This document shows, in pieces, positions 17,731-37,062 of a DNA stretch of 64,000 bases. Position 1 is the stretch's first letter; each line of letters opens with the position of its first letter. The notes under the pieces are model-generated. The model was given only the letters and a program-made list of their open reading frames with translations. It was not told the origin of the DNA and searched no databases. A program made the translations under genes and the position numbers. This DNA is from Planctomycetota bacterium (lineage in GTDB: Bacteria > Planctomycetota > B15-G4 > SIAN01), in contig JANNXA010000055.1 of NCBI GenBank assembly GCA_031409275.1, positions 1 through 64,000 of the forward strand. The letters run 5' to 3'.

Positions 17731-18244
17731 GCGGCGCTGCGCACGCCGGTCGACACGCTCATCAGCAACTGGGCGTACATGGTGATGGCATCGCTCGCAT
17801 GGACCTTGAAGGCGTGGCTCGCACTGCTCCTGCCGGAAGACGGCCGCTGGGCGCGCCAGCGGTCGGGGGAGAAGCAGCGGCTGCTCACGATGGAATTCAA
17901 GCGCTTCTTGAACGCCTTCATCCGTGTGCCGGCGCAGATCGTGCGCAGCGGGCGGCGCGTCCTCTACCGTCTGCTGGCGTGGAACCCGTGGCAGCCAGTC
18001 TTCCTGCGCGCCGCGAGCGTGCTCGAGCATCCGCTGCGCTGCTGAACCGGAACGACTTGGCGCCGGAGTACGGACGCTCCGGCTCGCGCGGGTCCAATGA
18101 GCCACGGAAGCAAACAACATGACCGGAAACACAACTCAGGCGATCAGCACCGGCCACGAAGGCCGGACGAGAACAACATGTCCACCGACTCTGGAATCTT
18201 CTTGTAGCAAATCACTTCGGCGGACTCGCTTGTTTGAGGACTAG
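17730..18244 (+). pseudogene. IS1380-family transposase C-terminal fragment plus IS end
   Basis: SNWAYMVMASLAWTLKAW...MEFKRFLNAFIRVPAQIVRSGR; end CGCTTGTTTGAGG followed by ACTAG. Confidence 0.75.
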
Positions 18245-21200
18245 TTGACATCCGCACCAGGACAGTTCTTCTTGACCTCGCCAGCAACCGTTTCGGCCAC
18301 CTCTTGCGCCTTCGCTTGCTCCCTATCTTTCTTCTCCTTATCTGTCCCACTCCCCTTGTCGTCTTGCCCCTTAATGTGCCGGACAGCGTGTACAAGCTCA
18401 TGCGTGATGACGCGCGACAGATCCGGCTTGTCTTTAGTGGACGTAGTTGACGACGCGACGAGTGTGGTATCAACCTGACAAACTTGCGATGTCGTCGACG
18501 CATACAACTGCCAAAAACTAAGACCATCAGCTCTGCGAGGCTCTACCCCATGGTCAAAGATGGTGTTCCCCGGTGGTTGTGCTGGGACAAAGTTATATCC
18601 GTCAAGTGTCACTGGATCGCCCATCGGAATAATGTAGACTGTCCCGAAGCTATGTCCGGCAGCCGTATTGAACCAGATCCTAAATGTCTGGCTACACAGT
18701 CTCATGATTGTAATGGCTCTCTGAATCCTCTCCTCATCCGCCTTGTTCTCGGCAAGCACGTTGACAATTGTCCCCGCCGGATCGACAGTTGTAATGGGTC
18801 GCGACTGGCAGTACTCTAGCAGCGACGCCCCATCGACATATCCCAGAGGGTCACGCTGGTTCCATACCCCGATGCGCGACGAGAACAAGCGTCGCTGAGC
18901 GCTCATCAGCGCTAGAGCGCCACGCATTTCGCGATAGCCGCCATAGCCGGTTGCGTTCCCGAATGTGCTGAGAACAGCAAGCCCCATGTCGCTCGTAGCA
19001 CCAAGCGCGCTTGCTTTGTCCGAGGCGTCCACATCGCCATCAAGGTCAATATCGCCGCGAACGTCGTATGCGGACGTATCGATCAATCCCTGAATCACCG
19101 CGTTAGCATCCGTCGAATCACAATCTCCATCCGAGTCCGCATCTCCCTTCGGCATCCCAAACGGCACCCCGTGCGCCGAGTACTTCACCCACTCCGTCAT
19201 CTTGCCCGTGTCGTCCACGAGCCCCGTGACATCGCCGCGCCAGTTCTGCGCGTAGTAGTTCACCTGCTCAAGAGTGCCGTCAGACGCCGTCGTCCACGCC
19301 GTGTTCGCATCCTTGTACCGCGTCACCACCCCGTTGATGTACGAACTCCCGCCATTCCCGTCGTCCCCCGCCTGCTGCAACCAGAAGATCTCCTTCGGCG
19401 TCGTGTCGCTCTCCCGGAACGTCCCCACCCCCCGCCACCGCTCGTCGTACGCCGTGTAGTACCACTTGTCGTTCGCGTCGACGTCGCCATCCGTGTCGGT
19501 GTCGTAGTGCTCCCCGATCAGATGCCCGAGCCCGTTGTACGTCAGCTCCTCGACCAGTGCCTGCGTTGTCGTGTTCTTGATCTTGCGCAGCCGATAGAAG
19601 GCGTCGTACACGTACTCGTAGCTCTGCGCGTCGTCGGTCAAGTTGCCGGCGGGATCGTAGGTCAGGGTGTAGTTGTTGCCGGTGGTACCCGTCGTGCTGT
19701 CGAGGTCCTGCGTTCCAAGCTCGTTCACCGCGTTGTGCGTCCGCGTGTCATCGTGCTCGTCGGTGTCGCCCCAGTCGCCGTCACCGTTCAGGTCGAGCTT
19801 CTCGCGGCCCCAGTTCCCGGTGTGCGTGAGCGTCCACTCCTGCTCGCGAGTCTCAGTTCCAATACTTCCGCCGGAGAGGGTGCCCTCCTGCGCGCCCACC
19901 ACGCGATCGAGATCGTCCATCGTGTACTTGACGTCAAAGCCCGCGTGGACGCCCTCATCCACGCTCGTCACGTTCCCCGCCTCATCCCAGGCGATCGTCG
20001 TGTTGAAGAAGTGCCGATCCGTCGCGAGGTCTTTCGTCCACTTGTTCGTCGTCGGACGATTGAAGCGGTCGAAGTCGGCGTAGTCGCCAGGCGTGTTCGT
20101 GTGCACCTGTGACATCACGCTTGCCTGCGGATAGTCCGTTCCGACCACCGATCCCGATCCAAGGTACTCGTAGGCCGCCAGGACGACGGTGTCGTCCTTC
20201 ACCTTCGTCACCCGGCTCGCGTCGTTGTCGTAGCTGCCGGTCGTGACGTACTCGTACGACGCGGTCTTGTAAGCCGCGGCAGTGCCGTGATTCATCGCCA
20301 TGCTGGTCTTGCGCACCGCGTTGCGGCCGCCAGTCGACTTGGCGTAAGCGTACGTCACGCCGTAGTCGTCGACCGATCCGCTCCCATCGACCGCACCGTT
20401 CCGGTCCTCCTCGTACTTGGAGATGAGGCCCCAGTCGTTGTAGGTGAACTTCACGTCGTTCAGCATCGTGCCCGAGCCTGGCGTCGCGTTGTCGTACTGT
20501 CGGACCCGCAGGACCTGGCCCAAGTCGGTGTACGTCGTCGTGATCCGAAGCACATCCGCGTCAAAGCCAGTTCCCGGAGTCGTCACCCGGCGATGGATCT
20601 GGCGCCCGTTGTCGTCGTAGGTGGTCTGGATCACGTTCGCCGTGTGCCCGCTTGGCTCTTGGTCCCGGTGCCAAATCTCTTGGGCTTGCGCGTTGTAGGC
20701 GTACTTGACGACATCCAAGTCATCATCGGCCGCATCCACGACGTGCCCGTCCGGGTAGCAGACCTTTTTCAAGAGGTGGCCAGTCGCGATCTTCGACGTG
20801 CCTGCGCTCGTACCCTTGATCGTTCCATAGGTGTAGAGCGTCTGCTGATCGTCCGCTCCCGTCGGGACATCTGCCGTGAGCATGGTCATCAGGCCGTCGG
20901 TGTACGCCCACTTGGTGGTGACGTTGTCATCGGTGCCCGAAGGGCCACCGCTGTTCACGGTCGCGTCGTAGTGCCGGATCTCCTTCGTCTTGCGGCCTGC
21001 GGCGTCGTACTCGTACTTCGTGACGTGGCTCGTCGCAATCGTCGGGTCCTGCACCGTCGCCAGCGTTCCGTCCTCGTTGTAGGCGTACGAGGTGCGCAGC
21101 GCGGTCGTCGATCGCGACGGCACCGAGAGCGCGCTCCGAGTGAACGTCGACCCTCCGTAGCTTCCGTACTCGACGGAGTCCGACACGCCCTGAAGGCCGT

Positions 21201-24200
21201 TCCACGACGCGCTGATCTGGATCCGTCCCTTCACGTTGCTCGATGTGTAGACCAGCGCGTCTGAATCGGCGTTGGTATCGAGCGCGCCAGTGGTCGTCTG
21301 GTCATCATGAAATCGCTGGATCAGCGCCGTCATGACGACGTTGCCGTCACTTGAGTCGTAGGTCGTCTGCTGCTCCGCAAGCACGATGTCGCTGGTCAAG
21401 TCATCGGCGTCGGCATAGGTCGAGTCGGTCACCCGTGCCAGCGTGAAGTTGTGGGTCTGGCGTCCAAGCCGGTCGTAGAAGCTCTTCACCAGTTGAGAGC
21501 CGTCGACCTTGATGATCTGCCGATCGGCGTCGTACCAGGTGTCGGCGTAGAGCGTGTCGTCGTCCGAACCGTCAGCCGTGTCGATCTTGTGGTGAATCGT
21601 CCGCCAGACCTGGCCGATCTCGTCGTAGCTCGTTTCCGATAGTGCGAGGCGGTTCGTCGTCACGGTGGTTGCGTCGCTCGACGAGGTGAGCCCAGACGTG
21701 GAACTCATCAACGCGGAGGCGGTTCGGCGGCCCAGGTTGTCATAAGTGTGAAGGAGGTGCGGCGTTGCCGGTCGTGCCTCGACGATGACTCGTCCGCGCG
21801 CATCGTTGGTGTACGTCGTGACCCGTTGGTCCGTCGTCGAATCCTGGACGAAACTCGTCCGCGTGGTGACGTAGCCGTTGCCCTCGTCGACCCCGGCGTC
21901 GAAGACTGCGGAGGAAGTCTTCACCATGTCGGCCGTGCCGGTCGTGTCGCCGCCGGTGTAGCCGTTGTCGTTCATGCCGATCCACGAGGCGGTCACGTGC
22001 CCGCGGATGTCGTAGTCGGTCCGATTGACGGTCCCGTGCGGGGCTTCCGTTCGAATGCGATGGCCCATGTCGTCGTAGACGTAGGTCGTCGGGTCGTAGT
22101 GGGTGCCGTCCGTCCCCGGCTCGCTTGCCGGGATCGAGAAGTAGCTCCGCGACTCGGCCAGCTCGCGCCCAGTCGAGTCGTAGTGGTTCGTCGAGAGGCG
22201 CTTCACCGTGCCGGTGTCGACCGCGGTGATTGGGTCGTCATCGGTCTCGTCAATCAGCGCGGTCAACGCCGCCGTCGTCGAGTTACCCGTCAGGCCGATC
22301 ACTCCCGAGACCTCTCCACCGCCAGCCTGATTGCGCACGTCATAGCTGACCGGCCCGTAGTACGTCGTCGGAGACCCCGCGACGGAGTTGGTGAAGCCGA
22401 GCGTGACCGGGCGCTGATCCTTCAACCGCGAGTAGTACCGCTTGGGCGTGTAGCTATTCGCAGTCGATGTCGCAGCGCGCCCCTGATTGTCGTAGGTGGC
22501 GGTCGACTTCCGGTGCAGCTCCGTCCCGGTGCTGGTGAAGTTGGTCGGGATCGTGATCGAGGTGAAATCACTGTGCGCCGTGTCGGCATCCTCGATCAGC
22601 GTCACCTGCTGGCCGTTCGTGTATCCGTGGTAGGTGATGTACCCAAGCCCCGTCTTCTCGAACCCGAGCGTGCCTTCCTTGTTCCAGTACTTCCGGGTCA
22701 CGTTGGAGGCGTTCGAGCCGTTCTTGGCGGTCGTGACCGCCGGCTCCGTCGTGTCCAGGCGAGCCAGCGCCAGCAGGTCGGTGCCGCTTGCCCCGTGCCA
22801 GGTGTAGGTGTACGTCCAGAGGTTGCTGCCCGTCGTGCCGGAGCTGATCTTGCTCGCGTACTCGCGATCGGTTGCGACCACCGGCCGCACGACCTGCGAC
22901 TTCGTCTCCGCGCCATCGACCTGGTAGCTCGAATAGCCGTACGTCCAGGTCCGATCGAAGTACGCCGTTCCGCTCGTCCCCGCCTCCTTGAACTTTCGGT
23001 CCGTCGCAAAACCCTCCGTCGTGTAGCTGCTCCCGACCAGCGAATAGGTCCACACGAGCCCGGCACTCGTTGATCTCGTGAACGTCCCCACCGGCACCGC
23101 CGGCGTCCCGCTGCTGTGCGTGTACGCCGTCACGTTTGCCGGTGTCGAGACTTCCGCAACGATGCCGGCGCTGTTCCGGTCGACGTAGGTCGCCCAAAGG
23201 TCAGAAGCGCCGTCAGGGTCCGCACTGGTCAGGACGTGCGACAGAGGCTGAAAAGCCTCGTCGTAGTAGTGGGTCTCGTAGGCGTTGTCGGGGCGCTTGA
23301 CGATGGTGCGCCCGTACCACTCGTCCTCGTCGTAGCCGGCGGTGTTGTCCGAATAGGAGGGGTTGGTTTCGTACTCGTAGGTGTAGACGCCGTTGCCGGA
23401 ACCGCCGCCGCAGCCGCAGCCGCCGTTGGCGTAGGACTTGACCACCCGCTCGCTGCTGTCGTACTCGAAGTAGGCCTCGGCATAGGGTTCGAGGTTGGCT
23501 GTCGTCTCGGCGAGGAAGTCCTCATCGAACGTCGCGTCGCCGGTGAAGTCGTACTTCCGGCAGCCATCAAACCCGACAATCAGCTTGATCGCGTGCGCGC
23601 GGCCAGGGTTGGTGGTGGTGACGAAGGTGCTCTTCCAGTAGCGGTAGTACTTGCGCTGGACGAGATCGACGCCGGAGTCTGTGAGCGGCGTCGTGATCTT
23701 CACGACCTTCAGGTCGCCGTTGGTGCCGTAACCGTCGGTACCGTCGTGGTAGGAGTACTCGACCTTGCCGACGGTCGCGGTGACTGGCGAGGATGTCCAC
23801 GTCCCGCTCGTGAGGATCTCGGCGACGACTTGGCTGATCTGGCTGCCGGAGTAGCTGTAGGTGTAGCGCCGATTGGATGCGTCGTATGCCAGGGCCGGCT
23901 TGCCGGTGGAGTATCCGGCAGTGATCGCCGTGCTCGCCGTCGTCGCGTCGCCGAAGTACGCGGTATTGCCGGCAGGATCGACGACCTTCCAGAGCTGTCC
24001 GCCGGCAGCCCCCGCGTCCGCATCGGTGTCGAAGAAATAAGTCTGATTGCCGACTTGGTCGGTGTAGACAAATGTCCCCGGCTGCGACGTCGCGTCCTTG
24101 TTGTGCTTCACGACGCCGGCAGCGCCGTTCACGGCGCGAAACACGGTCTTCCCGTCGCCGATCCGCTTGAATTCGATGAAACGATCGGCGCCGTAGACGA

Positions 24201-24735
24201 GATAGAGGATGTCGCCCGCGCCCTCAGAGATCCCGTCCGACGGGTCGTCGTAAAGCAGCACCTCGGGGTTGCTGATCTGGAACCAGTTCCTTCCCTGGTA
24301 GCCGGCGCTGTCCAAGTGCGTCCCGCCGGAATCGGTCTGGCGCGCGTTGTAGGAGCGCCCCACGACCCAGTCGACTCCCGTCGATGGCAGCCGCAGATCA
24401 ACATCAAAGATCTCTGCGGCGCCCTGATCGAGGCGCAACCCGTTGCCGCGCACGCTGGTGCCGGAGCCATGGGCGAACGGGTTGCCACCGATGGCAAGCC
24501 CCAACCCCGTGCCAGCCCGCACCGCGCCATCGATCTGCGTGCCGCGTTGCCCGACGCGCGGACGCACGGTCTGGAGCGTGGTCGCCGTGGGCGGCAGGTA
24601 CGTGGTCAGCGAAGTCGCCGCGATCTCAAGGATCTTGTCGGGCTCGACCAGTACGCGATGGGCGTGCACTGCCGCAAGCCCGGCACTGCCAGCCACGAGC
24701 GTCGCGATCGAGAGGGCAGAGAGCGAAGCCTTCAT
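18241..24735 (-). CDS. Rhs/YD-repeat polymorphic toxin with Sec-type signal peptide and HExxH metallopeptidase-like tip
   Basis: MKASLSALSIATLVAGSAGLAAVHA leader, many YD repeats, core RDPLGYVDG...PITTVDPAG, tip ITHELVHA. Confidence 0.92.
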   Translation of the reverse strand: MKASLSALSIATLVAGSAGLAAVHAHRVLVEPDKILEIAATSLTTYLPPTATTLQTVRPRVGQRGTQIDGAVRAGTGLGLAIGGNPFAHGSGTSVRGNGLRLDQGAAEIFDVDLRLPSTGVDWVVGRSYNARQTDSGGTHLDSAGYQGRNWFQISNPEVLLYDDPSDGISEGAGDILYLVYGADRFIEFKRIGDGKTVFRAVNGAAGVVKHNKDATSQPGTFVYTDQVGNQTYFFDTDADAGAAGGQLWKVVDPAGNTAYFGDATTASTAITAGYSTGKPALAYDASNRRYTYSYSGSQISQVVAEILTSGTWTSSPVTATVGKVEYSYHDGTDGYGTNGDLKVVKITTPLTDSGVDLVQRKYYRYWKSTFVTTTNPGRAHAIKLIVGFDGCRKYDFTGDATFDEDFLAETTANLEPYAEAYFEYDSSERVVKSYANGGCGCGGGSGNGVYTYEYETNPSYSDNTAGYDEDEWYGRTIVKRPDNAYETHYYDEAFQPLSHVLTSADPDGASDLWATYVDRNSAGIVAEVSTPANVTAYTHSSGTPAVPVGTFTRSTSAGLVWTYSLVGSSYTTEGFATDRKFKEAGTSGTAYFDRTWTYGYSSYQVDGAETKSQVVRPVVATDREYASKISSGTTGSNLWTYTYTWHGASGTDLLALARLDTTEPAVTTAKNGSNASNVTRKYWNKEGTLGFEKTGLGYITYHGYTNGQQVTLIEDADTAHSDFTSITIPTNFTSTGTELHRKSTATYDNQGRAATSTANSYTPKRYYSRLKDQRPVTLGFTNSVAGSPTTYYGPVSYDVRNQAGGGEVSGVIGLTGNSTTAALTALIDETDDDPITAVDTGTVKRLSTNHYDSTGRELAESRSYFSIPASEPGTDGTHYDPTTYVYDDMGHRIRTEAPHGTVNRTDYDIRGHVTASWIGMNDNGYTGGDTTGTADMVKTSSAVFDAGVDEGNGYVTTRTSFVQDSTTDQRVTTYTNDARGRVIVEARPATPHLLHTYDNLGRRTASALMSSTSGLTSSSDATTVTTNRLALSETSYDEIGQVWRTIHHKIDTADGSDDDTLYADTWYDADRQIIKVDGSQLVKSFYDRLGRQTHNFTLARVTDSTYADADDLTSDIVLAEQQTTYDSSDGNVVMTALIQRFHDDQTTTGALDTNADSDALVYTSSNVKGRIQISASWNGLQGVSDSVEYGSYGGSTFTRSALSVPSRSTTALRTSYAYNEDGTLATVQDPTIATSHVTKYEYDAAGRKTKEIRHYDATVNSGGPSGTDDNVTTKWAYTDGLMTMLTADVPTGADDQQTLYTYGTIKGTSAGTSKIATGHLLKKVCYPDGHVVDAADDDLDVVKYAYNAQAQEIWHRDQEPSGHTANVIQTTYDDNGRQIHRRVTTPGTGFDADVLRITTTYTDLGQVLRVRQYDNATPGSGTMLNDVKFTYNDWGLISKYEEDRNGAVDGSGSVDDYGVTYAYAKSTGGRNAVRKTSMAMNHGTAAAYKTASYEYVTTGSYDNDASRVTKVKDDTVVLAAYEYLGSGSVVGTDYPQASVMSQVHTNTPGDYADFDRFNRPTTNKWTKDLATDRHFFNTTIAWDEAGNVTSVDEGVHAGFDVKYTMDDLDRVVGAQEGTLSGGSIGTETREQEWTLTHTGNWGREKLDLNGDGDWGDTDEHDDTRTHNAVNELGTQDLDSTTGTTGNNYTLTYDPAGNLTDDAQSYEYVYDAFYRLRKIKNTTTQALVEELTYNGLGHLIGEHYDTDTDGDVDANDKWYYTAYDERWRGVGTFRESDTTPKEIFWLQQAGDDGNGGSSYINGVVTRYKDANTAWTTASDGTLEQVNYYAQNWRGDVTGLVDDTGKMTEWVKYSAHGVPFGMPKGDADSDGDCDSTDANAVIQGLIDTSAYDVRGDIDLDGDVDASDKASALGATSDMGLAVLSTFGNATGYGGYREMRGALALMSAQRRLFSSRIGVWNQRDPLGYVDGASLLEYCQSRPITTVDPAGTIVNVLAENKADEERIQRAITIMRLCSQTFRIWFNTAAGHSFGTVYIIPMGDPVTLDGYNFVPAQPPGNTIFDHGVEPRRADGLSFWQLYASTTSQVCQVDTTLVASSTTSTKDKPDLSRVITHELVHAVRHIKGQDDKGSGTDKEKKDREQAKAQEVAETVAGEVKKNCPGADVN

Positions 24736-24856
24736 GAGCGATCCCCCAGAACTTCCGGCGGCGCGCCTTTGGCAGAACACGCCGAATGAATCGTGATCAA
24801 GCTGCGAACGACAATGACAGAAACGTCCTACGGCACCGTGAGAGTCGACCGAGCTA

Positions 24857-25681
24857 CTACTGCTCGTCGGCCGCTGCTGCGGCTTCCCACACGGCGGTGA
24901 TCTCGCCGAGCTTCGTTTCGAGGTTCACACGGGCGGTGGCCACCGACTGGTTCGCACGGACTTCGGCGAGGTGCGCCTGATCGTCGGCATCTGGATCCTC
25001 GCCGTACTTGGCCGAGATCTTCTCGTTGGCGAGTGCGGCGCGCAGGTGGACCCACTCCTCCTGCGTGCGGTCGACCACGAGGTATTCGAGCGGGACGTTC
25101 CAAGCGGCCTCGTTCGTGTGGACCCGCGAGACCAGATCCACCTGGTCCTTTGCGAGGCTCCGTGTGCCGGCGTCAAACACTCCCTTCAGCTTTGCCGCGC
25201 GTTCCGCCGCCACCCGGTCGTAGTCCGCCTTCGCGACTTGGCAGGCTGCGACTTCGTCCCGACTCGCAAGGCCCGATTGCACTTTGCGGATGAGCGCGTC
25301 CCGCGCCTTGGTCGCCTCGAAGAGCGCGTCGTCTGCTTCGCGCAGCGACGTGGGATGCTCGGCAATCCAGCTCTTCACGTTGAGCACGACATCGTCCGTG
25401 ACCGCCGCTTCAACCCCGGTCGCCGCCAGGCGCTCCGGCTGGAGACCGACGCGGTAGAGCGCGGTCGCGAGTTCCGGATCGAGCCGGATCTTCTGCTTCG
25501 CGTCGGTCTTGTTGGTCGCTTCCGGCTTTGCAGGCTTCGCCGCAGCGGCGACCACTGGGATGGCGTCCGAATCGCCCCGATCTCCCGCTCCGGATCGCAC
25601 CGCGGCGAGCGCGGCCCCACCTCCAAGCACCGGCACCAGCAACCAAGTCGAGCGCATCCGAGACCCCATGCGTGACCCCAT
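24857..25681 (-). CDS. Hypothetical exported alpha-helical protein co-oriented with Rhs
   Basis: Hydrophobic leader WLLVPVLGGGAALAAV followed by helical, charged sequence. Confidence 0.7.
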   Translation of the reverse strand: MGSRMGSRMRSTWLLVPVLGGGAALAAVRSGAGDRGDSDAIPVVAAAAKPAKPEATNKTDAKQKIRLDPELATALYRVGLQPERLAATGVEAAVTDDVVLNVKSWIAEHPTSLREADDALFEATKARDALIRKVQSGLASRDEVAACQVAKADYDRVAAERAAKLKGVFDAGTRSLAKDQVDLVSRVHTNEAAWNVPLEYLVVDRTQEEWVHLRAALANEKISAKYGEDPDADDQAHLAEVRANQSVATARVNLETKLGEITAVWEAAAAADEQ

Positions 25682-25782: not shown

Positions 25783-26505
25783 TTAGGGTATTTCCTCAGT
25801 CGATTCAGGCGCGAGATCCGACCATCGCAGGAGTCCTCGCACGTAGTCGATGGCCTCCTGCAGTTCGCGGTGGGCGGCGGTCGCCGAGATGCCGTGCCGC
25901 TCGGCAATCACGGCGAGAGTCTCGCCCTCGATCACCGATCGCAGGAGCGCGTCTCGCTGCATTTGCGGGAGGCTCGCGATTGCTTGCGAGAGGAGACATG
26001 CCGCTTCTGAAGACATCGCGATCCTTCTTGGCTCATCGCACGTGACGGCCAACCTGTTCCAGACCCGCTGCAAGACCGCGGAACTGCGCCCCCTCGGCCC
26101 GTCGAGCACGTCGGTCGCAGACACGCTCTCCTCGTGAACGAGACGGCGCTGCGCCTGGCGTGCAAAGTCGACCACCGCAAACCGACTGACGGATCCCACC
26201 CAACGCGCGAGGCGCACCGCGTCCTGGATGCCGGTCGCTCGACGCGCGATCGCGCTCCAAACTCGCACAAGCACCTCTTGCGCGAGGTCGTTCGAGTGAC
26301 TCACCCGCACTCCGCAGCGAGCGCACGCGCCGCGCACGACACGCTGGATCACACGGATCAGATCGACAACGGATTGCTGAAGCGCGTCGACCGGCTCGCC
26401 GCTTCGAGGCGACATCGTGCCTCGTCGCAGACCGTTGATGCGGTCGCGATCCCCCAGAATGTCCTGCAAGTCGCGCGCGCGATCCGACGGGCAGCGTCGT
26501 CGCAT
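25783..26505 (-). CDS. ECF-type sigma-70 family RNA polymerase sigma factor
   Basis: Region 2 DLAQEVLVRVW; region 4 LPQMQRDALL...GETLAVIAERHGIS; start may be near 26416. Confidence 0.8.
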   Translation of the reverse strand: MRRRCPSDRARDLQDILGDRDRINGLRRGTMSPRSGEPVDALQQSVVDLIRVIQRVVRGACARCGVRVSHSNDLAQEVLVRVWSAIARRATGIQDAVRLARWVGSVSRFAVVDFARQAQRRLVHEESVSATDVLDGPRGRSSAVLQRVWNRLAVTCDEPRRIAMSSEAACLLSQAIASLPQMQRDALLRSVIEGETLAVIAERHGISATAAHRELQEAIDYVRGLLRWSDLAPESTEEIP

Positions 26506-28974: not shown

Positions 28975-30467
28975 GCGACACGGGAGCGACCCTCGCGGGG
29001 CGAGACGCCGCCGCGTCGGTGGTCGATCCCCACCTTGCGACGCCTGAGTTCCTGCGGAGGATCCCGCGCGAGTTTGCACGCCACCACGCACTGCTTTCTC
29101 AGGGGCTGCTGCCCGATGGCAGCGAGCTCGTGGCCACCTCACCAAATACCTCTCCCTCGTCCATCTGGAACGTTTTTGTACGGGTGGGACGACCGATCGT
29201 CGCGAGGAGCGCGGATGTCGAGGTGGTCGTGCGCGCGATCGATCACGCCTACGCCGCGGTCGCGGCCACAGCCCGCCCGGCGGCGATCGCGCCCGAAGCT
29301 CCCGCGGGCCCTTCCCTTGATGAGCTGCTGCGCGAAGCAGACCAAGACCTCCTGCGCACACAGGGCAAGGGACGGGTCGTGCAACTCGTCGACGCGCTCC
29401 TGTTCGAGGCGGTCGGCCGCGGCGCGAGCGACATCCACATCCAACCGACCGACCACGAGGCGCTGGTGCGCTACCGCGTCGATGGTGCCCTTGCCACCGT
29501 GCGCACCATCCAAAAGACGCTCACCGCGGCGGTCTTAAGCCGCGTCAAGGTCATGGGCCGGATGGACGTCGCTGAGCGGCGCCTGCCACAGGACGGCCGC
29601 GCGACCGTGACGATCGGGACGCGGGCGATCGACCTGCGCATCGGCATCTTCCCCACCAGCTACGGCGAGCGTGCCGTGCTGCGCATCCTTGACTCCTCAC
29701 GTCAGGTGACCGACCTCGCCGGGCTTGGGATGACACCTGCGGTGCTGGCACCTTTCCTTCGCGCCGCCAACCGCGCCGACGGCTTGGTCCTCGTGACCGG
29801 CCCCACCGGCTCGGGCAAGACCACGACGCTCTACTCCACCCTCGCCAACATCGCGGCGCCCGACTTGAACGTCATGACCATCGAAGACCCCATCGAGTAC
29901 GACCTCGCGACGACGGGGCTGCCGGTCAGCCAATCGCAGGTGAACACCAAAAAGGGCGTCACCTTCGCAAGCGGGCTGCGCCACCTCCTGCGCCAAGACC
30001 CCGACGTCATTCTCGTGGGCGAGATTCGTGATGCGGAGACGGCCCGGATGGCGATCCAGTCTTCGCTGACTGGGCACTTGGTCTTTTCGACACTTCACAC
30101 CAACGACGCTGCGAGCGCCGTGACGCGCTTGATCGACCTTGGCGTCGAGCCGTTTCTAGTGAGCGCCTCGCTCGCGGGGGTCTTGGCACAGCGGCTGCTG
30201 CGCAAAGTCCATCCTGCCTGCGCCGGTCGCGGCTGCGCTGGCTGCCTCGCAACGGGGTATTTGGGTCGGATCGGCGTGTTTGAGCTGATCGAGATCGACG
30301 ACGCGATGCGAAGCCTCATCGCTCGCGGAGCGGAACTTGGCGAGCTGCGCGATGCGGCGAAGGCCCGTGGCATGCGGACGCTGCTTCAGGAGGGAGAGCG
30401 GCTCGTCGCCGAAGGTGCCACGACGCGCGTCGAACTCGAGCGAGTGATCCAAGGGGCCCTTGAATGA
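28971..30467 (+). CDS. gspE: Type II secretion ATPase
   Basis: ASDIHI, RRLPQDGR, GPTGSGKTTT, IEDPIE, LRQDPDVILVGEIRD, STLHTN. Confidence 0.95.
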   Translation: MSDTGATLAGRDAAASVVDPHLATPEFLRRIPREFARHHALLSQGLLPDGSELVATSPNTSPSSIWNVFVRVGRPIVARSADVEVVVRAIDHAYAAVAATARPAAIAPEAPAGPSLDELLREADQDLLRTQGKGRVVQLVDALLFEAVGRGASDIHIQPTDHEALVRYRVDGALATVRTIQKTLTAAVLSRVKVMGRMDVAERRLPQDGRATVTIGTRAIDLRIGIFPTSYGERAVLRILDSSRQVTDLAGLGMTPAVLAPFLRAANRADGLVLVTGPTGSGKTTTLYSTLANIAAPDLNVMTIEDPIEYDLATTGLPVSQSQVNTKKGVTFASGLRHLLRQDPDVILVGEIRDAETARMAIQSSLTGHLVFSTLHTNDAASAVTRLIDLGVEPFLVSASLAGVLAQRLLRKVHPACAGRGCAGCLATGYLGRIGVFELIEIDDAMRSLIARGAELGELRDAAKARGMRTLLQEGERLVAEGATTRVELERVIQGALE

Positions 30468-31735
30468 GCCTCTTCCGATATCGCGCGGTGTCGATCGTGG
30501 GCGCGCCGGTGGGAGCGCCCGGCAGCGTGCTCACTGGCGAATCATCTGGCGAGAGCGCGGCGGAGGTGCGCGCGCGGCTGCGCGCGGGTGGGCTTCAGGT
30601 GCTCGACCTCGCCCCCGTACGACCACCGTTTCGACTGCCGCAGCTCGGGATCGCCTCGACCATCGCCGCCGCAATCGAGCGCCATCTTCGCTCACGTCGT
30701 CACTCGCAGAAGGAGGAGGCGTGCGATGGGCTTGCGACGCTGCTCGAATCCGGGGTGCCGCTGGTCGAGGCTCTCGACACGGTGTCGCGCGGTGAAGCTG
30801 CGCGGGAGCCAGCACTTCGAAGAGTGCTCGCACTGACGGCGGATCAAGTTCGGGCCGGTGTCTCTCTTGCCGCGGCGCTTGGCGAACACAAGGGGTGGTT
30901 TGATCCCGTCGAAGTGGCGCTGATCGATGCGGCCGAGCACGGCGGCGACCTTGCATCGACGCTGTCGACGCTCGCCGCACGGCAGGCCAAGCACAGCGAG
31001 GTCGGGCAGAAGATCGCGAGCGCGCTGCTCTACCCGAGCATCGTCGGCATGGTCGGCATCGCCGTGTGGCTCTTCCTCAGCACCAAGACCCTGCCGGAGC
31101 TCGCCGGAATCCTTGAGGGTGCGCGGGTCGAAGTACCAACGCTTACTGCGGTGGTGATGGCCTCGGGAAAGTTCGTCGTCGAGCACGCGGCGGCGATCGC
31201 GCTGTTTTTCTTCCTGATTGGAGTCGCCGCTTCCTTGCTCACGACCCACTTCGAGCGGCGGCTGCACCGCCGTGCCGGCGTTACGAAGTTTCGCGCGCTG
31301 ATCGGCATCGGTGCGCTGCGCCGATTGCAACTCGCGCGGGCGACGGGCGCGCTCGCGGAGCTGCTGCGCGGAGGGGTGCCGCTGGTCGAGGCGCTGAAGG
31401 CGGTCGCCCCCACCACCGGCCGCGGAGCGTTGCGAGCTTCAATCGAGCGCAGTGCCGGTGCCATCGAGCAGGGCAAAAACTGGTCGCAGACTCAAGACGA
31501 TGCACGGCTCTATCCGGCCGAGTTCACGCGCTTGGTCGAGATGGGCGAAACGAGCGGTGACCTCGCGCCGCTGCTCGCACGCCTCGCCGACCGGATGGAG
31601 CGGAGTGCCGAGCGGCAGATCTCTCGACTCGCGGCACTCCTTGAACCGGCCGCGATCCTGCTGCTGGCCGCACTGATCGGCATCGTGGTCGCCGCGGCGA
31701 TCCTGCCGCTTACCCGTCTTCAGGGGATTGTTTGA
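30464..31735 (+). CDS. gspF: Type II secretion inner-membrane platform protein
   Basis: LATLLESGVPLVEAL, ALLYP, GETSGDL, LLEP. Confidence 0.93.
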   Translation: MSLFRYRAVSIVGAPVGAPGSVLTGESSGESAAEVRARLRAGGLQVLDLAPVRPPFRLPQLGIASTIAAAIERHLRSRRHSQKEEACDGLATLLESGVPLVEALDTVSRGEAAREPALRRVLALTADQVRAGVSLAAALGEHKGWFDPVEVALIDAAEHGGDLASTLSTLAARQAKHSEVGQKIASALLYPSIVGMVGIAVWLFLSTKTLPELAGILEGARVEVPTLTAVVMASGKFVVEHAAAIALFFFLIGVAASLLTTHFERRLHRRAGVTKFRALIGIGALRRLQLARATGALAELLRGGVPLVEALKAVAPTTGRGALRASIERSAGAIEQGKNWSQTQDDARLYPAEFTRLVEMGETSGDLAPLLARLADRMERSAERQISRLAALLEPAAILLLAALIGIVVAAAILPLTRLQGIV

Positions 31736-31778
31736 CGGGCGTTCGCCAATGCTCCACCGCCACGAAAGGACCGCCGCC

Positions 31779-32213
31779 ATGTCGCTGCCCCGCTCGCGAA
31801 ACTCCGCCGGGATGACCCTGGTCGAGATCCTGGCCGTGGTGGTGATCCTGGGCTTCATCGCAGCGACGCTCGCGATCGGCTTATCGGGGTCCTTTGGTAG
31901 GGCGAAGCACGAACTCGCGAAGACCGGCATCGGCCAGGTCATCGACCGGATCGAGATCTTTCGCATGGAGAAGGGGGTGTGGCCCACCAACGACCTCGGA
32001 TTGAAGGCTCTCTCCGATGGCTACGCCGCCCCCACCGAGCCCTATTACCTCGAACCTTCCAAGTTGCTTGATCCCTGGAATCGCCCGTACTTCTTCGTCG
32101 CACCCGGCCCGGACTTGCGCCCCTACGAAGTCGTCAGCTACGGCGCCGACGGCGCACCCGGTGGCCAGGGCGAGAACGCTGACATCTCGTCGGTCGACTT
32201 GCGAAAGAGCTGA
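31779..32213 (+). CDS. gspG: Major pseudopilin
   Basis: GMTLVEIL prepilin site, DPWNRPY, SYGADGAPGGQGENADI; GAAAGGA RBS. Confidence 0.95.
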   Translation: MSLPRSRNSAGMTLVEILAVVVILGFIAATLAIGLSGSFGRAKHELAKTGIGQVIDRIEIFRMEKGVWPTNDLGLKALSDGYAAPTEPYYLEPSKLLDPWNRPYFFVAPGPDLRPYEVVSYGADGAPGGQGENADISSVDLRKS

Positions 32214-32225
32214 CGAGACGGAGCG

Positions 32226-32693
32226 ATGGCGATGACTCACACCGGGAGCTTTCGAGGTCTGACACTGATCGAGGTGCTGGTCACCACGGTCTTGATCGGG
32301 CTGGTGGCGGCGGTGCTGCTTCACAGCTTTGGTGACGCGCAGCACGAGCGCGCCGCGTTTCGCGCGCTGCTGCGCGAGCTGCGCGACCTCGACGCGAGGG
32401 CCCGTCTGGTGGCGAGAAGTGGCGAAGCGGTCGAGCTGTCCCACGACGGCACGAGTGGCCGGGTCGTCATTCGCGGGAGTGGTGGCGGCAGCATCATTGC
32501 CGAGCGCGAGCTACCACCTGGGGCGACCTGTTCGATTCGGCTCAAGGGTGCACGGAGCGCGCGTGCGATCGCTTTTGACCCGATCGGAGCCTCGCGCGAC
32601 TACACGCTCGACGTCGAGTTCGGGCAGCAGCGGGCGCGACTCGACGTCGCTGGGCTCACGGGGTGGGTCACGCAGTCGGAGCCATCTCCGTGA
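32226..32693 (+). CDS. Minor pseudopilin (GspH-like)
   Basis: RGLTLIEVL N-methylation motif; position after gspG. Confidence 0.8.
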   Translation: MAMTHTGSFRGLTLIEVLVTTVLIGLVAAVLLHSFGDAQHERAAFRALLRELRDLDARARLVARSGEAVELSHDGTSGRVVIRGSGGGSIIAERELPPGATCSIRLKGARSARAIAFDPIGASRDYTLDVEFGQQRARLDVAGLTGWVTQSEPSP

Positions 32694-33112
32694 GTGGCAG
32701 CCGACGCGGGATGACCCTTCTTGAAGTCGTGGTCGCGATCGCGCTGCTCGCGATCATCGCTGTCGTGGTGCTGACGGTCATGATGGCCGCGACCGCGATG
32801 ACGGCTCCGAGGCGCGAGTCGATCGACCCGCACGTACTGCGCGCGCTCGTCGAGAAGCACTTTGCGAATGACGAGGCACTTGCGGCCTTTCGTGACGCTG
32901 GCGAGCTCACTTTGATGCTCGGGGACACAGGCCATCCCCACGACGTGCGATTGCGGTGGCTGCCTCAAGACGACGGGTCTCGGCTCCACGATTGGATCGA
33001 GGCGATCTGCGATGAAGAGAGAGTCCTCCTCTACGTCCGGCGACCGCGCGATGACGCCGTAGGTGCTGAAGCCTCGGTAAGGGCGCCTTCCACGAGTGAG
33101 CCGCGCAAATGA
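32690..33112 (+). CDS. Minor pseudopilin (GspI-like)
   Basis: RRGMTLLEVVVAIALL. Confidence 0.8.
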   Translation: MSGSRRGMTLLEVVVAIALLAIIAVVVLTVMMAATAMTAPRRESIDPHVLRALVEKHFANDEALAAFRDAGELTLMLGDTGHPHDVRLRWLPQDDGSRLHDWIEAICDEERVLLYVRRPRDDAVGAEASVRAPSTSEPRK

Positions 33113-33633
33113 AGCGTCGCGCCGCGGCTGGGCTCACGCTGCTCGAAGTGCTCCTCGCGGTGGCACTGCTGGCGACGGTCGTGTCCGGGACTTCGTGGTT
33201 TCTGCTGACGGCAGCAAAGCGAGCGGTCACCTCCGCGGCGGTAGTCGACGAGCGTGTCGCGCTGGCGGCGCTGTTTGCGGCGATCGATCGCGACCTCATC
33301 GTCGGCGATACAGATGCAAACGCCGTCGAAGGGAAGAGTGGCCGGGTGGCGGTCTCGTCGGATGGCCTGTGGATCGCGACGCGATCGAGCACCACGCACG
33401 TCGGTGCGGTGATCCGCGAGTACACCTGGCGCGCGACTACCCGGGAACTCCTGAGCGTCGAGCGCGCCCGCCTTAGCGCGACCACGGAGTCAAGCGTTCC
33501 GACAGCGGCGCGTGTCGTGCTCGGCGGGGTCGTCGCGTTCGCGACCGAACTGAGCCCGGGTAAAGAGTCGCTTGAGGTCGCCGTCGAGCTTGCATCCGGA
33601 GCAGGGATGCGCCGCGAATGGTCTCTGCCATGA
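33109..33633 (+). CDS. Minor pseudopilin (GspJ-like)
   Basis: AGLTLLEVLLAVALL, IDRDL. Confidence 0.8.
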   Translation: MKRRAAAGLTLLEVLLAVALLATVVSGTSWFLLTAAKRAVTSAAVVDERVALAALFAAIDRDLIVGDTDANAVEGKSGRVAVSSDGLWIATRSSTTHVGAVIREYTWRATTRELLSVERARLSATTESSVPTAARVVLGGVVAFATELSPGKESLEVAVELASGAGMRREWSLP

Positions 33634-34544
33634 ACGCGCGCGAAGCCGAGCCAGCGCGCCGCCCACGCAAGCCGCAGCGAAGCGAGCGGCGGGGAGCGGC
33701 ACTGCTCTTCGCGCTCGCGGTCCTTGCGTTGTTGATGCCCCTTTGCCTCGGCCTCTCAAAGACGATCACCACGTCGGCGCTCAGTCATCACGTCGATCAA
33801 GGCGTACGACTCGTTGACGACCTCCTCGCCGCATCCGAGGGGGCCATCGAAGAGTGGCTGGTGCACGAGGCGCGCTCGCTCGTCCTGCCGCCAAACAACC
33901 TGTATCCCGCCGCCTTGGTACTCGCCGATCACTTCGAATCAGACGGGGTGGATCGCGAGCTGACGATCATCGCGTGGGACCAACACGGGCTCGTGCCGCT
34001 CGCGATTGCGCGTGGCGCCTCGCCGCTGCGACTGGCGCTACCGCGTGGGGTGGCAAGCGCAATCGATCACGGCCCAAGCGGCGGTGAGCACCCGGGGCTC
34101 GACTGGTACCTCGAAAATGGCGACGGCGAAGCATTCCCGCCGATGCCACGGATCGAGAGCTCTACCGGGGAAGCAGTCCTTCGCTGGCCACAATCGACCG
34201 GGAGCAGCGTCGGCGCCTGGATCGCGACGCACGGTAGTGCTGCCATCAACGTCAGCACCGCTCCCATCGCCATCGTCGATGCCGCCCTGCGCGAGCTTGG
34301 CCGTGGCGGGATCGACCTCATCGTCGCTGCACGAGAGAAAGGCGAGTCGGTCCCCGTGCCGGCGCTTGATGGCAGCCACCGTCGCGACGAGCGGCCTGGC
34401 TTCGACTTGGTGTCGAGCAGCGATTGCTTCGCGTTTCGGATCGAGGCGCGGGCGGGACGCGCCAAGCGCAGTATCTGGGCGATCTACGACATGCACGAAG
34501 GGAAGTGGCGACTTGCGCAACGCCTCCTCATCCAGGGTGAGTGA
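33630..34544 (+). CDS. GspK-like pseudopilin
   Basis: RRGAALLFAL (no E+5) and INVSTAP motif typical of GspK. Confidence 0.8.
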   Translation: MNAREAEPARRPRKPQRSERRGAALLFALAVLALLMPLCLGLSKTITTSALSHHVDQGVRLVDDLLAASEGAIEEWLVHEARSLVLPPNNLYPAALVLADHFESDGVDRELTIIAWDQHGLVPLAIARGASPLRLALPRGVASAIDHGPSGGEHPGLDWYLENGDGEAFPPMPRIESSTGEAVLRWPQSTGSSVGAWIATHGSAAINVSTAPIAIVDAALRELGRGGIDLIVAAREKGESVPVPALDGSHRRDERPGFDLVSSSDCFAFRIEARAGRAKRSIWAIYDMHEGKWRLAQRLLIQGE

Positions 34545-35034
34545 GCCCTCCCGCGATCCGCGGCGAGTTTGGCGGCGCCGTTTCGCGGCGATCTGCGGGG
34601 GCGGCGCGTTGCTCGGCGGGGCGCTGGCGCAGTGGGCGCTGTCTCCGTTACCCGCGACCGATGACGTCCTTGAGAAAGATGTCCCTACGGAGGCCGCACC
34701 GGCGGCGGTGGCGGACAAAGTCCTCGCAGTCGATCGACGAGCGTTTGAGCGCCAGCTCTGGTGGGTGCTGCCGAAACTCGATGCCACCACGAAGAGTGAT
34801 GCCAGCGCGCAGCCGCCGCCCGCGCTGCCCCTCGAACTCGACTTGATCGGTGTCACGGAAGTGGGCGGTGTCTTGATCGCCGCCCTCTATGACCGACGCG
34901 CGGACCGACTGCGCCTTGTGCGTCAGGGCGAGCGGATCGAGGATGCGGACGTGGTCGAAGTCACGACGGAGCGGGTGCGACTGACGCGCCAAGACGGCGA
35001 GCTGCTGCTGACCCGACGCAGGCCAGGCCCATGA
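34537..35034 (+). CDS. GspC-like bitopic protein
   Basis: Single TM helix, then LELDLIGV...AAL...VRQGERI...VVEV HR-domain-like pattern. Confidence 0.6.
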   Translation: MSEPSRDPRRVWRRRFAAICGGGALLGGALAQWALSPLPATDDVLEKDVPTEAAPAAVADKVLAVDRRAFERQLWWVLPKLDATTKSDASAQPPPALPLELDLIGVTEVGGVLIAALYDRRADRLRLVRQGERIEDADVVEVTTERVRLTRQDGELLLTRRRPGP

Positions 35035-35942
35035 CCGACGCCGCGCCACCGACGCCCCACTGCGAGCGGCTCACTTGGCCGTCGTCACGCTGCTACTTCG
35101 CACTGCTCGATGCGTCGCGCGTGCCAGGCGGTGAGCGTGTCAGCGAAGAGCGCCTGCGCTTCATACTGGAGCCAGAGCTCCCGGAGCCGCTCGAAGACGT
35201 GCACGCGGCGTTTTTGAGAGTCAGCGCGACGCAGTGGATCGCGTGCGCGGTGCCGCGCCGGGCGATTGAGGCGGAGGTCGCAGCCAGCGTCGTGTCGCTG
35301 ACACCGGATGCCATTCCGAAGCAGCTGCTTGACGCGGTCGCCGCGATCGAAGGGTCGATCGCCCCCAGCGACTTTGAACTGCTGATCGGCGACTACGAAC
35401 CCAAGACGATCCGCGCGTGGCGGCGGCGCTGCATCACGGGTGCGATTACCGTCGTGGTGGTCGTGCTGGCCATCGCGCTCATCGGAGTCGAGCGGCGCAT
35501 TCGACAAGCGATCGGCCATGCTGAGAAGCTCCGAGCGCAACGCTTCGAACTCGTGGCGAAGGCGCTTGGCGAGGCGGGCGCAGCTGCATCGCTACCGCCG
35601 GAGCTTCGCCTCGTGGCGGCACTTCGCGCCCTGCGCCAGACCCGCCGTCAGGGGGACGCGATCGCGCCGGCACGCGATGCAACGGACGTGCTTGAGCAGC
35701 TGCTTCGAAGCTGGCCAGAGTCACTGCCGACGCGCACGGACTCGGTGGTGATCTCGGAGACGGCGGTCCACGTCCGCGGCATCGTCGCCGACAGCGACGC
35801 GGCGCAGTCGCTGGCATCCGCGACGGCGCCGCTTGCGGGGTTTGAGGCGGCGTTTCCGGCGGTGCAGTCCGCACCCGATGGCTGGCGCTTCGGGCTCGCA
35901 TGGCAGCGCAAGTCCACGGCGACTGGAGGGCAACAACCATGA
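35031..35942 (+). CDS. GspL-like protein
   Basis: Cytoplasmic part (EPELPEPLEDVH), one TM helix, coiled coil and periplasmic domain; operon position. Confidence 0.7.
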   Translation: MTDAAPPTPHCERLTWPSSRCYFALLDASRVPGGERVSEERLRFILEPELPEPLEDVHAAFLRVSATQWIACAVPRRAIEAEVAASVVSLTPDAIPKQLLDAVAAIEGSIAPSDFELLIGDYEPKTIRAWRRRCITGAITVVVVVLAIALIGVERRIRQAIGHAEKLRAQRFELVAKALGEAGAAASLPPELRLVAALRALRQTRRQGDAIAPARDATDVLEQLLRSWPESLPTRTDSVVISETAVHVRGIVADSDAAQSLASATAPLAGFEAAFPAVQSAPDGWRFGLAWQRKSTATGGQQP

Positions 35943-36478
35943 AGCGATCGCACGGTCGACTCATGGTGATGGCGGTCACGGCGGTGGCGGTCTTCACTGT
36001 CACGCTGCGGGCGCGCGCGCTTGGCGACGCGGTGGAGGCGGTGGAGGTGGAGGCTCGCGCCACGCATCAGACGACAAAAGACCTCCGCGAACTGGCGATG
36101 CTCAAGACGCAACGCGCGGTGGTCGCCGAAGCGAAGCGCCCCACCAACGACGTCATCGCGCAGGTGAACGCGGTGTTGCGCGACGCCGGGATCCCGACCG
36201 GAAGGCTGAAGTCGCTCGATCCGGAGGCCGACGTGCCACTTGGCGGGCGCTACCGCAGCCAGACCATTCGGCTCGCCCTCGATCGATTGGCACTCGGCGA
36301 AGTGGCCAGCTTTTTGTCGGCGTGGCGGGGTGCTGAGACGGTCTGGACGCCGCGATCGATCGAGCTGACCCATGTCGCTGCGACCGATGGAGCTGACCTT
36401 GGCGTTGACGTGCGAATCGTCATCGCCGCGACCTATCTCGCGGAACTAGCGGAACTTGTCCAGGAGCCCTCTCGATGA
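35939..36478 (+). CDS. GspM-like protein
   Basis: N-terminal TM helix, coiled coil, ferredoxin-like tail; follows the GspL-like gene. Confidence 0.65.
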   Translation: MKRSHGRLMVMAVTAVAVFTVTLRARALGDAVEAVEVEARATHQTTKDLRELAMLKTQRAVVAEAKRPTNDVIAQVNAVLRDAGIPTGRLKSLDPEADVPLGGRYRSQTIRLALDRLALGEVASFLSAWRGAETVWTPRSIELTHVAATDGADLGVDVRIVIAATYLAELAELVQEPSR

Positions 36479-37062
36479 GCACTTCGCCACGCCACCGCCA
36501 CCGCATGGTCGTGCTCGCGATGGTCGCCGCAGCTGCCGGATGCGCGGGTCCCTCGATCGCAGGGCCCTACAGCACCACCGATCCTGCGCACCGCGACGCT
36601 TCAAAAGCCGAGACGCTCACGCGCGACGCCGTCGAGTGCGCGGATGCCGATGCTGCACGCGCGGAAGCGCTGCTGCGCGAGGCGCTCACCGCCGATCTCT
36701 TCCACGGCCCCGCCCACAACAACTTGGGCGTCCTCTACTTTCGCCAGGGAAAGCTCTACGAGGCGGCCAACGAGTTTGAGTGGGCGAGGAAGCTCCTGCC
36801 GGGGCACCCCGATCCGCGCCTGAACCTCGCGCTCGTGCTTGAGCGCGCGGGTCAGGTGACGGAAGCGTTCACGGCGTATGACGCGGCGCTCGAGGCAGCG
36901 CCCGAGCACGTGCCGACGATGCAGGCGTACGCGCGGCTGGCGGTGCGGGAGGGAAGGCGGGACGAGAAGGTCGACGCGATGGTGAAGGCGATTGCGCTGC
37001 GGGGGGAGGATGAGCGGTGGCGAGCGTGGGCGCGCGCGCAAATGGCGCAAGTGGACCGGTAG
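36475..37062 (+). CDS. TPR lipoprotein, putative pilotin (PilF/PilW-like)
   Basis: Lipobox AAAGC; TPRs AHNNLGVLY and PRLNLALVL. Confidence 0.8.
   Translation: MSTSPRHRHRMVVLAMVAAAAGCAGPSIAGPYSTTDPAHRDASKAETLTRDAVECADADAARAEALLREALTADLFHGPAHNNLGVLYFRQGKLYEAANEFEWARKLLPGHPDPRLNLALVLERAGQVTEAFTAYDAALEAAPEHVPTMQAYARLAVREGRRDEKVDAMVKAIALRGEDERWRAWARAQMAQVDR

Follow-up and report, generated by a model that had tools for sequence, protein, structure and literature searches.

The window analysed here, a stretch of 64,000 nucleotides from a Planctomycetota bacterium (contig JANNXA010000055.1, positions 1 to 64,000), encodes a large Rhs protein next to a divergent operon of type II secretion system (T2SS) genes. 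We propose that both form part of a mobile module, in which a predicted Rhs toxin directed at the cell envelope is probably exported via Sec and then via its own dedicated secretin of the T2SS. Comparative evidence is the basis from which we infer both the secretion and the toxicity of this Rhs.

Organization of the Rhs and gsp genes

The features of the locus are listed below in window coordinates (aa, amino acids).

18241..24735, minus strand: Rhs/YD-shell polymorphic toxin, 2164 aa, identified by TIGR03696, structure model, fold search, motifs and 90 homologues
24661..24735, minus strand: predicted Sec signal peptide of Rhs (SPI-type), with a basic, hydrophobic, small-residue pattern, from a heuristic rule
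18241..18771, minus strand: variable C-terminal tip of Rhs, 176 aa, with an HELVH motif; likely a zinc metalloprotease
16832..18132, no strand assigned: insertion-sequence remnants between Rhs and the candidate immunity gene (DDE_Tnp_1 and DDE_Tnp_1_4 matches)
15112..16542, minus strand: candidate exported immunity protein, 476 aa, with a hydrophobic N-terminus and a tip-like GC content at third codon positions (GC3) of 0.64
24857..25681, minus strand: unnamed helper with an N-terminal membrane anchor, a flexible linker and an all-helical domain
25783..26415 (or to 26505), minus strand: ECF-type sigma factor (TIGR02937, 55.2 bits against a cut-off of 42.9)
26638..28974, plus strand: GspD secretin of the Rhs-linked lineage (PF00263, three PF03958, PF21305; trees)
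28971..30467, plus strand: GspE ATPase (PF00437; best NCBIfam model TIGR02533, under its cut-off)
30464..31735, plus strand: GspF platform protein (PF00482; TIGR02120 best)
31779..32213, plus strand: GspG major pseudopilin (PF08334; TIGR01710, 91.9 bits against 88.85)
32226..33633, plus strand: minor pseudopilins GspH (32226-32693), GspI (32690-33112) and GspJ (33109-33633), with N_methyl motifs and weak gspH, gspI and gspJ model matches
33630..34544, plus strand: GspK (weak NF037980; kept in full loci)
34537..35034, plus strand: GspC-like protein (NF041515, E 1e-4; start set from coupling)
35031..36478, plus strand: GspL-like (35031-35942) and GspM-like (35939-36478) proteins, assigned by position and topology and by their conservation at other loci
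36475..37062, plus strand: TPR lipoprotein (TPR and PilW-like matches), a likely pilotin

In the family libraries, the Rhs core model TIGR03696 (36.2 bits, cut-off 32.5) was the sole match to the Rhs protein of the window; its Pfam scan returned zero families and hence no PAAR, VgrG or WXG100 match. The protein is laid out as a leader (residues ~1-25), the shell, a dockerin-like insert (~1865-1903, weak dockerin matches with E 0.015), the core end DPAG (1985-1988) and the variable tip. Both RDPLG and DPAG motifs are present, the core end being of the DPxG type. An AlphaFold2 model of residues 30-1200, built from 46 sequences, had a predicted local distance difference test score (pLDDT) of 88.8, and Foldseek retrieved Rhs, teneurin-like and Tc shells with it (best E 1e-29, with template modelling scores of just 0.2-0.34). 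The Rhs sequence alone gave no match to the sequences of solved structures.

The gsp operon (26638-37062, plus strand) is compact, with 10 of its 11 junctions overlapping as called, nine of them by 4 bases; the likelier gspG start at 31779 turns the overlap between gspF and gspG into a gap. The secretin has N0, N and C domains, and its best model is GspD, under the equivalog cut-off. A single GspE ATPase is encoded together with GspF and no PilT-type gene, followed by GspG and four minor pseudopilins (H, I, J and K, by weak matches and gene order). Readings of the operon as a type IV pilus, Tad or type III secretion system were rejected in view of the best hidden Markov model (HMM) matches and the lack of a retraction ATPase. 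In the case of the GspL- and GspM-like proteins, no HMM match was obtained. Homologues of the TPR protein carry a lipobox-type cysteine in most of those listed, and the protein is a pilotin candidate because it stays beside gspD when gspE-M are gone. The locus holds no prepilin peptidase gene; one lies elsewhere in the genome of the window (G000, 93% complete), at G000:C49:149577. In this genome the module genes are single-copy, and a separate gspD-E-F-G cluster is found on contig C52 in addition to pilus clusters.

These results bear out much of the initial annotation. It had described the locus as a Rhs protein with a Sec-like leader, a helper and an ECF sigma factor, divergent from a coupled gspD-E-F-G-H-I-J-K-(C)-L-M-pilotin operon, and all of these genes were recovered here. 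It had also expected a borrowed prepilin peptidase, which agrees with the enzyme found outside the locus.

The helper belongs to no family in Pfam, NCBIfam or PHROG, and its own family comprises 1297 clusters at 50% identity. Its structure model (pLDDT 84.5) combines a linker predicted as disordered with an all-helical domain that is modelled confidently. Among 147 helper proteins, the N-terminus is hydrophobic in 143 and of anchor length in 130. The predicted layout, an N-terminal membrane anchor followed by a helical periplasmic domain, is foldase-like. No Foldseek match was found at E 0.001 and no usable Atlas match; the best hit in a VIA search (Z 9.3) covers a helical hairpin only, and fold searches overall give generic helical hairpins. 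A complex prediction of the helper (62-272) with Rhs (30-809) scored 0.00, which is evidence in neither direction. Its position, together with the analogy to anchored foldases, leads us to predict that the helper is a periplasmic chaperone or adaptor.

Conserved linkage of Rhs, helper, secretin and TPR lipoprotein

The helper was used as an entry point to survey the linkage. It was detected in 5 of 41 relatives, the genome of the window included, in 9 of 401 genomes of the phylum and in none of four genomes of the same genus. Another class yielded 22 of 251 genomes, five of these matches being weak, and metagenomes yielded 18 loci, 14 of them shorter than 4 kb. The plasmids and viral contigs searched contained no helper, and one scan of a genome-contig collection returned only a short unrelated match.

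Among 16 helper loci from the first genome sets, Rhs was present in 13, gspD in 8 and the full operon in 4 (G006, G180 twice, G211b). A further 20 loci were then picked from the 29 stronger matches in the other class, with the helper as the sole criterion. All 20 contained Rhs and 18 contained gspD (one truncated); gspD was directly followed by the TPR gene in 14, and gspE was found in none. Two forms of the module can be distinguished. A short form, consisting of Rhs, helper, secretin and TPR gene with no gspE-M, is represented by 21 loci (14 of the further loci, G045, G257 and five metagenome loci), versus 5 loci of the full form, window included. Rhs is visible in 19 of the 21 short-form loci; in the other two the contig ends. 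Four genes make up the conserved core, encoding Rhs, the helper, the secretin and the TPR lipoprotein, and gspE-M are missing from most loci. In most loci the helper lies immediately before gspD on the same strand. This linkage is conserved rather than due to chance, these four genes being found together in several families of the phylum. The named Rhs homologues belong mostly to Phycisphaerales or Phycisphaerae. The secretins of loci L021 and L022 share 98% identity, as against 44% for the N-terminal 900 residues of Rhs, implying that one secretin type pairs with different Rhs proteins.

The sigma gene was found in none of the 33 other loci with helper and gspD both in view, and tblastn gave no match to it in any related locus. 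Altogether, the initial interpretation is partly supported by these comparisons. From the proposed synteny, helper, Rhs, gspD and TPR gene recur widely and the sigma gene drops out, and with it the idea that the locus is self-regulated. A full gsp operon belonging to the locus exists in the window and in four other loci, and is absent from the majority.

Some observations at related loci are worth recording here. In the full modules of G006, G180a and G211b, the TPR gene is directly followed by a pair of ECF sigma and Ser/Thr kinase genes (L009:5986-9069, L046:14539-17321 and L045:10660-13518); these were rejected as counterparts of the sigma gene of the window, being different proteins in a different place. 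Also rejected as members were G005 and G007, where the helper domain forms the end of a HEAT-repeat protein of 665 aa whose operon contains no Rhs (L011:3965-5962, L012/L013).

A secretin lineage apart from housekeeping GspD

With the window secretin as query, at least 28 of 401 genomes gave matches at E 1e-60, a lower bound owing to the stricter filter. Loci were fetched for 6 close and 12 more distant secretins. In a tree of 78 rows, the window secretin falls into a group of 23 rows (Shimodaira-Hasegawa-like approximate likelihood ratio test, SH-aLRT, 99), which leaves out the housekeeping GspD of G000, G006, G045, G257, G180 and G211; this tree and a second one were built by a quick method with no bootstrap. 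Rhs or a Rhs remnant adjoins 15 of the 23, and four contigs are too short to tell. The trees indicate that the Rhs-linked secretins are a lineage apart from the housekeeping GspD of each genome.

The linkage was also examined in reverse. In five closed or near-closed genomes, Rhs lies within 20 kb of 6 of 6 clade secretins versus 0 of 34 other secretins, with the proviso that G180 and G211 had been chosen for linkage and that one Rhs position was taken from its gene coordinates. Beside secretins of the wider clade, Rhs proteins of other, unrelated families were found (G211c, G087, G134, G181, G353), some with HINT domains and nuclease-like tips and one with a phospholipase A2.

Upstream of Rhs in G134, G181 and G087, a second unnamed helper domain was noticed (L077:4342-5136, L088:3208-3813 and the C-terminus of L075:8053-16026), and a third unrelated protein occupies this place in G220 and G353. 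Secretin domains also occur inside open frames of ~4500-4600 codons (G353:C1:2246527, G211:C1:2542301, G180:C1:1469780).

Leaders, tips and downstream genes of the Rhs family

Leaders were judged by our own hydrophobicity rule, not SignalP, in the window Rhs and 81 homologues, of which 7 had no usable N-terminus. A signal-peptide-like leader stands just before the conserved mature start in 73 of the 75 scored proteins; as a control, the same hydrophobicity was reached by 74 of 4053 equal windows of the mature chain. The leaders vary in sequence and keep their character, with no twin-arginine (Tat) motif and two lipoboxes among them. The Sec-type leader of the initial annotation is thereby corroborated by this rule.

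Markers of a type VI secretion system (T6SS) were looked for in five genomes. PAAR was found in none of them, and TssC was not found in G000, G006, G045 and the closed G180. The combination expected for T6SS trafficking, a PAAR, VgrG or adaptor domain on Rhs plus a T6SS in the genome, was not observed for the window Rhs and G000, in line with the earlier claim that this Rhs carries no T6SS trafficking domain or WXG100.

Tips were compared in 67 full-length Rhs proteins, window included; in 43 of these a sequence pattern allowed the tip to be separated at the core end (~5 visibly mis-cut). The 43 parsed tips fall into 40 families. Identity is 0.3-0.6 along the Rhs body versus 0.04-0.07 over most of the tip. 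Cysteine makes up 5.6% of tips versus 0.35% of the core and body, and 42 of the 43 tips have four or more cysteines. Such cysteine-rich tips fit folding in an oxidising compartment. HExxH occurs in 6 of the 43 tips, and a CxC pair (440/442) is invariant in the 45 aligned Rhs proteins.

The tip of the window is likely a zinc metalloprotease, judging by its HELVH motif. It is compositionally foreign, with a GC3 of 0.58 versus 0.84 for the core. Atlas language-model features place it at 0.90-0.93 to M85, PipA and M35 zincins, which is a lead only. It has no Pfam match and no homologue among longer proteins, the latter being weak evidence.

Behind the tip, 15 loci were submitted to a search for downstream genes, of which L183 gave none. 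In the other 14, an open reading frame (ORF) starts within 110 nt of the Rhs stop in every case, with a hydrophobic N-terminus in 13. ORFs of this exported type were also seen in G045, L022, G181 and G180b; the downstream ORF is soluble-looking in G211a and G180a, and G006 has none. No mutual similarity was detected among the 19 downstream candidates compared, and the 18 scanned matched no known immunity family. Hypervariable, cysteine-rich tips together with an exported downstream protein fit envelope-acting toxins with periplasmic immunity. Following the pattern at these loci, the 476-aa ORF of the window is likely the immunity partner of its Rhs; it has no family in Pfam, NCBIfam or PHROG, and transposase remnants part it from the Rhs stop. 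Among contigs aligned to the window, none of the joints listed skips the insertion sequences behind Rhs. One public contig covers 17470-29822 with no difference and possibly derives from the same source DNA, hence it is not independent.

Other downstream regions differ in detail. In the module of G006, the tip consists of a tandem repeat, and no downstream gene is coupled to it. A lipoprotein-like ORF directly after the Rhs stop at L021 (2401-2787, minus strand) matches the T2SSG (GspG) domain with E 8e-7. In the window (12892-13500, minus strand), a frame end that contains cysteine is followed by an overlapping small ORF; the two adjoin an insertion sequence of the integrase type and may represent an orphan tip with its immunity gene.

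Proposed export route and alternatives

According to the reading that we favour, the leader would be cut off and the shell would fold in the periplasm, aided or held by the membrane-anchored helper in the way that lipase foldases serve T2SS clients. T2SS paralogues dedicated to one substrate and anchored chaperones are known, as in Pseudomonas (Xcp/Hxc, LipH) and Acinetobacter (CpaB). The tip would gain disulfides, remain caged in the shell and probably be released by self-cleavage at the DPxG motif, a reaction known for Rhs proteins. The TPR lipoprotein would assemble the secretin. In the window, GspE-M of the locus would power export; in the short form, the secretin would borrow the ATPase, platform and pseudopilins of the host. 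Finally, the tip, here a likely zinc protease, would act on the envelopes of nearby bacteria, and kin would be shielded by the exported protein encoded downstream.

A number of observations weigh against this route. A shell of 230 kDa would equal or exceed in size the cargo that a T2SS is known to pass. Most loci lack motor genes, and clade GspK was not found with the query used in nine genomes of the short-form type (G045, G257, G336, G285 and G009, searched with no positive control; G438, G501, G554 and G473, searched with G180 as a positive control). The best GspE in those genomes reached E 1e-86 to 1e-102 versus 1e-149 for the clade. In G045 and G257 the GspC, L and M proteins that would belong to the housekeeping system were not located, so that borrowing of a motor is hypothetical. 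Also the linkage has exceptions. Full operons of the clade occur with no Rhs in the DNA fetched (G058, G273, G186, G152), and in the outer sister group this holds for 4 of 6, with Rhs beside 2 of 6. Conversely, Rhs and helper occur with no nearby secretin in G336 (2 loci), G211a, G009, L181 and L182. Not one of the 4 Rhs of G220 comes within 100 kb of any of the 8 secretins in this genome; of the 12 Rhs of G353, one lies within 20 kb of a clade secretin and a second at 26 kb. In G006, with 17 Rhs cores, Rhs are found away from such a secretin, and one lies 6 kb from an unrelated secretin; these Rhs speak against a general dedication. Lastly, TssC is present in one of the five genomes, G211, ~25 kb from one module.

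The missing motor genes suggest another arrangement, in which Rhs, anchor, secretin and pilot suffice by themselves, much like a two-partner system, to thread the shell or display it at the surface, with gspE-M optional or ancestral. This would account for the 21 loci that join gspD straight to the TPR gene, for the clade GspK and GspE not found in short-form genomes and for the position of the membrane-anchored helper, mostly right before gspD on the same strand. Moreover, the short-form secretins are intact, about 690-740 aa long, and mutually only 40-50% identical; their full length and deep divergence set them apart from freshly decayed genes. The short form may have a single origin, since 8 rows stand together in the first tree (97), while the larger tree requires two changes. 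On the other hand, alignments of the short-form secretins start before the N0 region, which is thus kept, and N0 of T2SS secretins is the part that binds GspC. In addition, G045 and G257 possess a housekeeping gspD-E-F-G cluster, continued in G257 by H, another pseudopilin and J, that could supply a motor, and a motor-free system has no evident energy source. We regard this arrangement as rather unlikely. The wider claim built on it, that the four-gene unit of Rhs shell, anchor, secretin and TPR pilot is a new class of toxin export in Planctomycetota, exporting or displaying caged, disulfide-rich envelope toxins of 230 kDa with no motor of its own, the anchor replacing the T2SS platform and the full operon being ancestral or accessory, appears improbable to a similar degree.

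The cargo itself could also be read differently, the same route serving a surface adhesin or a tag for kin recognition in place of a toxin that kills. For the majority of tips and downstream proteins, indeed, no toxin or immunity family was matched, the dockerin-like insert is present in 59 of the 67 full-length homologues, and the tips look disulfide-like and in some cases repetitive. We consider this quite unlikely in view of the six HExxH tips, the phospholipase A2 and HINT/WHH nuclease tips at sister loci, the orphan Rhs cassettes in G346 and the variable exported gene tightly coupled behind the tip. Finally, Rhs and T2SS genes might be independent passengers of the same mobile elements, with Rhs leaving by the housekeeping system or in vesicles and the linked T2SS serving other cargo. 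Both adjoin terminase, methyltransferase, integrase or relaxase genes at several loci, their distribution is patchy down to the same genus (0 of 4 genomes, and 9 of 401 in the phylum), and signal-peptide Rhs with no linked secretin exist. However, the linkage persists where ten genes have been lost and where the gene order has changed, and it is seen again with Rhs of unrelated families; also, over 9 loci, the pairwise identities of the four components (Rhs, helper, gspD, TPR) are correlated with each other (Spearman 0.34-0.76, with kin not independent). This makes mere co-travel very unlikely, and export through Sec and the linked secretin is retained as the probable route.

Relation to described systems

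The module resembles the canonical T2SS in its predicted GspC-M gene set, likely pilotin, borrowed prepilin peptidase and an anchored helper beside the client. It differs in having a polymorphic-toxin shell as client, a TPR-type pilot, a helper with no recognisable fold and a stable form consisting of secretin and pilot with no platform. With T6SS Rhs effectors (RhsA, Tse5, Tse15, RhsP) it shares the YD shell caging a variable tip and the DPxG core end, whereas the module Rhs have no PAAR, VgrG or adaptor, and have a Sec leader, a longer shell, cysteine-rich tips and exported immunity candidates.

Export of Rhs by a T2SS is not unheard of, because Bcn-A of Xanthomonas perforans is reported, in the portion of the article accessible to us, to lose its activity in an xpsD mutant (Marutani-Hert 2020, PMC7259588). 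A 2025 preprint, as far as its accessible text goes, links Rhs families of Xanthomonas and Ralstonia to gspG and predicts T2SS export from this neighbouring gene, calling it unconfirmed (bioRxiv 10.1101/2025.05.08.652813). Both are antibacterial, T6SS-independent Rhs with accessory and immunity genes (PMC7259588; 10.1101/2025.05.08.652813), as is predicted for the module. Bcn-A differs, according to the part available, in its 1398 aa and in relying on the general Xps system (PMC7259588), and for the Xanthomonas and Ralstonia families gspG is the only linked gene named in the available text (10.1101/2025.05.08.652813). By comparison, Rhs of the window type has ~2150 aa, a clear leader and its own secretin, pilot and anchor, with or without the whole operon. 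The lone 'gspG' beside Xanthomonas and Ralstonia Rhs might correspond to proteins like the L021 ORF and not to operon parts.

Zhang et al. 2012 used 'T2SS/Sec' for any toxin with a signal peptide and, in the text accessible to us, tabulated no neighbourhood signature genes (PMC3482391). The 'T2SS/Sec-dependent' toxins in that text share with the module Rhs a signal peptide, RHS repeats and variable tips, HExxH peptidases and PLA2 among them, and planctomycetes are named as carriers (PMC3482391). Their class differs in that the signal peptide is its sole definition, and the word 'secretin' was not found in the accessible text (PMC3482391). Bacterial teneurin-like proteins are likewise YD-shell toxins with signal peptides and variable tips, one tip being toxic only with a secretion signal, as far as the available part of the article tells (PMC13018210). 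The authors state there that they see no obvious delivery machinery (PMC13018210). From the same part, these proteins have another N-terminal architecture and occur in other phyla, and the module Rhs differ from them by a consistently linked secretin (PMC13018210). T2SS-like loci ahead of giant Omnitrophota proteins are described in the accessible text of a preprint on giant genes (10.1101/2023.11.21.568195). Among the top literature matches, with subscription papers outside the scope, no description was found of the Rhs-dedicated secretin lineage, of its platform-less form or of this module in Planctomycetota. Calling the route uncharacterised, as in the initial annotation, was consequently an overstatement in view of the reports on Bcn-A and the gspG-linked Rhs.

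The module names a candidate export machine and makes it approachable with a four-gene cassette. If borne out, it would mean that a secretin alone can fix the choice of substrate and use the motor of another system, or do without a motor, and that a T2SS can pass cargo of ~230 kDa. The family is also a large and untapped source of tips rich in cysteine, of candidate immunity proteins that are exported, and of a helper family that has no name yet (~1300 clusters); competition systems in this phylum have received little study.

Mobile element and neighbouring genes

The flanking element of the window is the following.

39899..50988, plus strand: mobile element with ParB-methyltransferase, terminase small and large subunits, replication protein, DUF2924 and serine integrase (PHROGs, Pfam)

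No portal or capsid gene was recognised in it. The module of the window adjoins this terminase-integrase element, and the same is seen in L027, G211c, G080 and G346; these neighbourhoods indicate that the Rhs-secretin module is mobile. A further copy of the element lies at G000:C55:72.6-84 kb and another on C15, and it is possibly a satellite.

Between operon and element, a convergent gene (37102-38502, minus strand) encodes a TPR lipoprotein of 466 aa that has a weak C2 domain and was not seen in related loci. Several toxin-antitoxin pairs are located at 7.6-11 kb, and the far end of the window (54853-63937, minus strand) holds a defence-type cluster with a helicase, an MrfA Zn-binding protein, a PLD domain, GmrSD, HEPN and a cytosine methylase.

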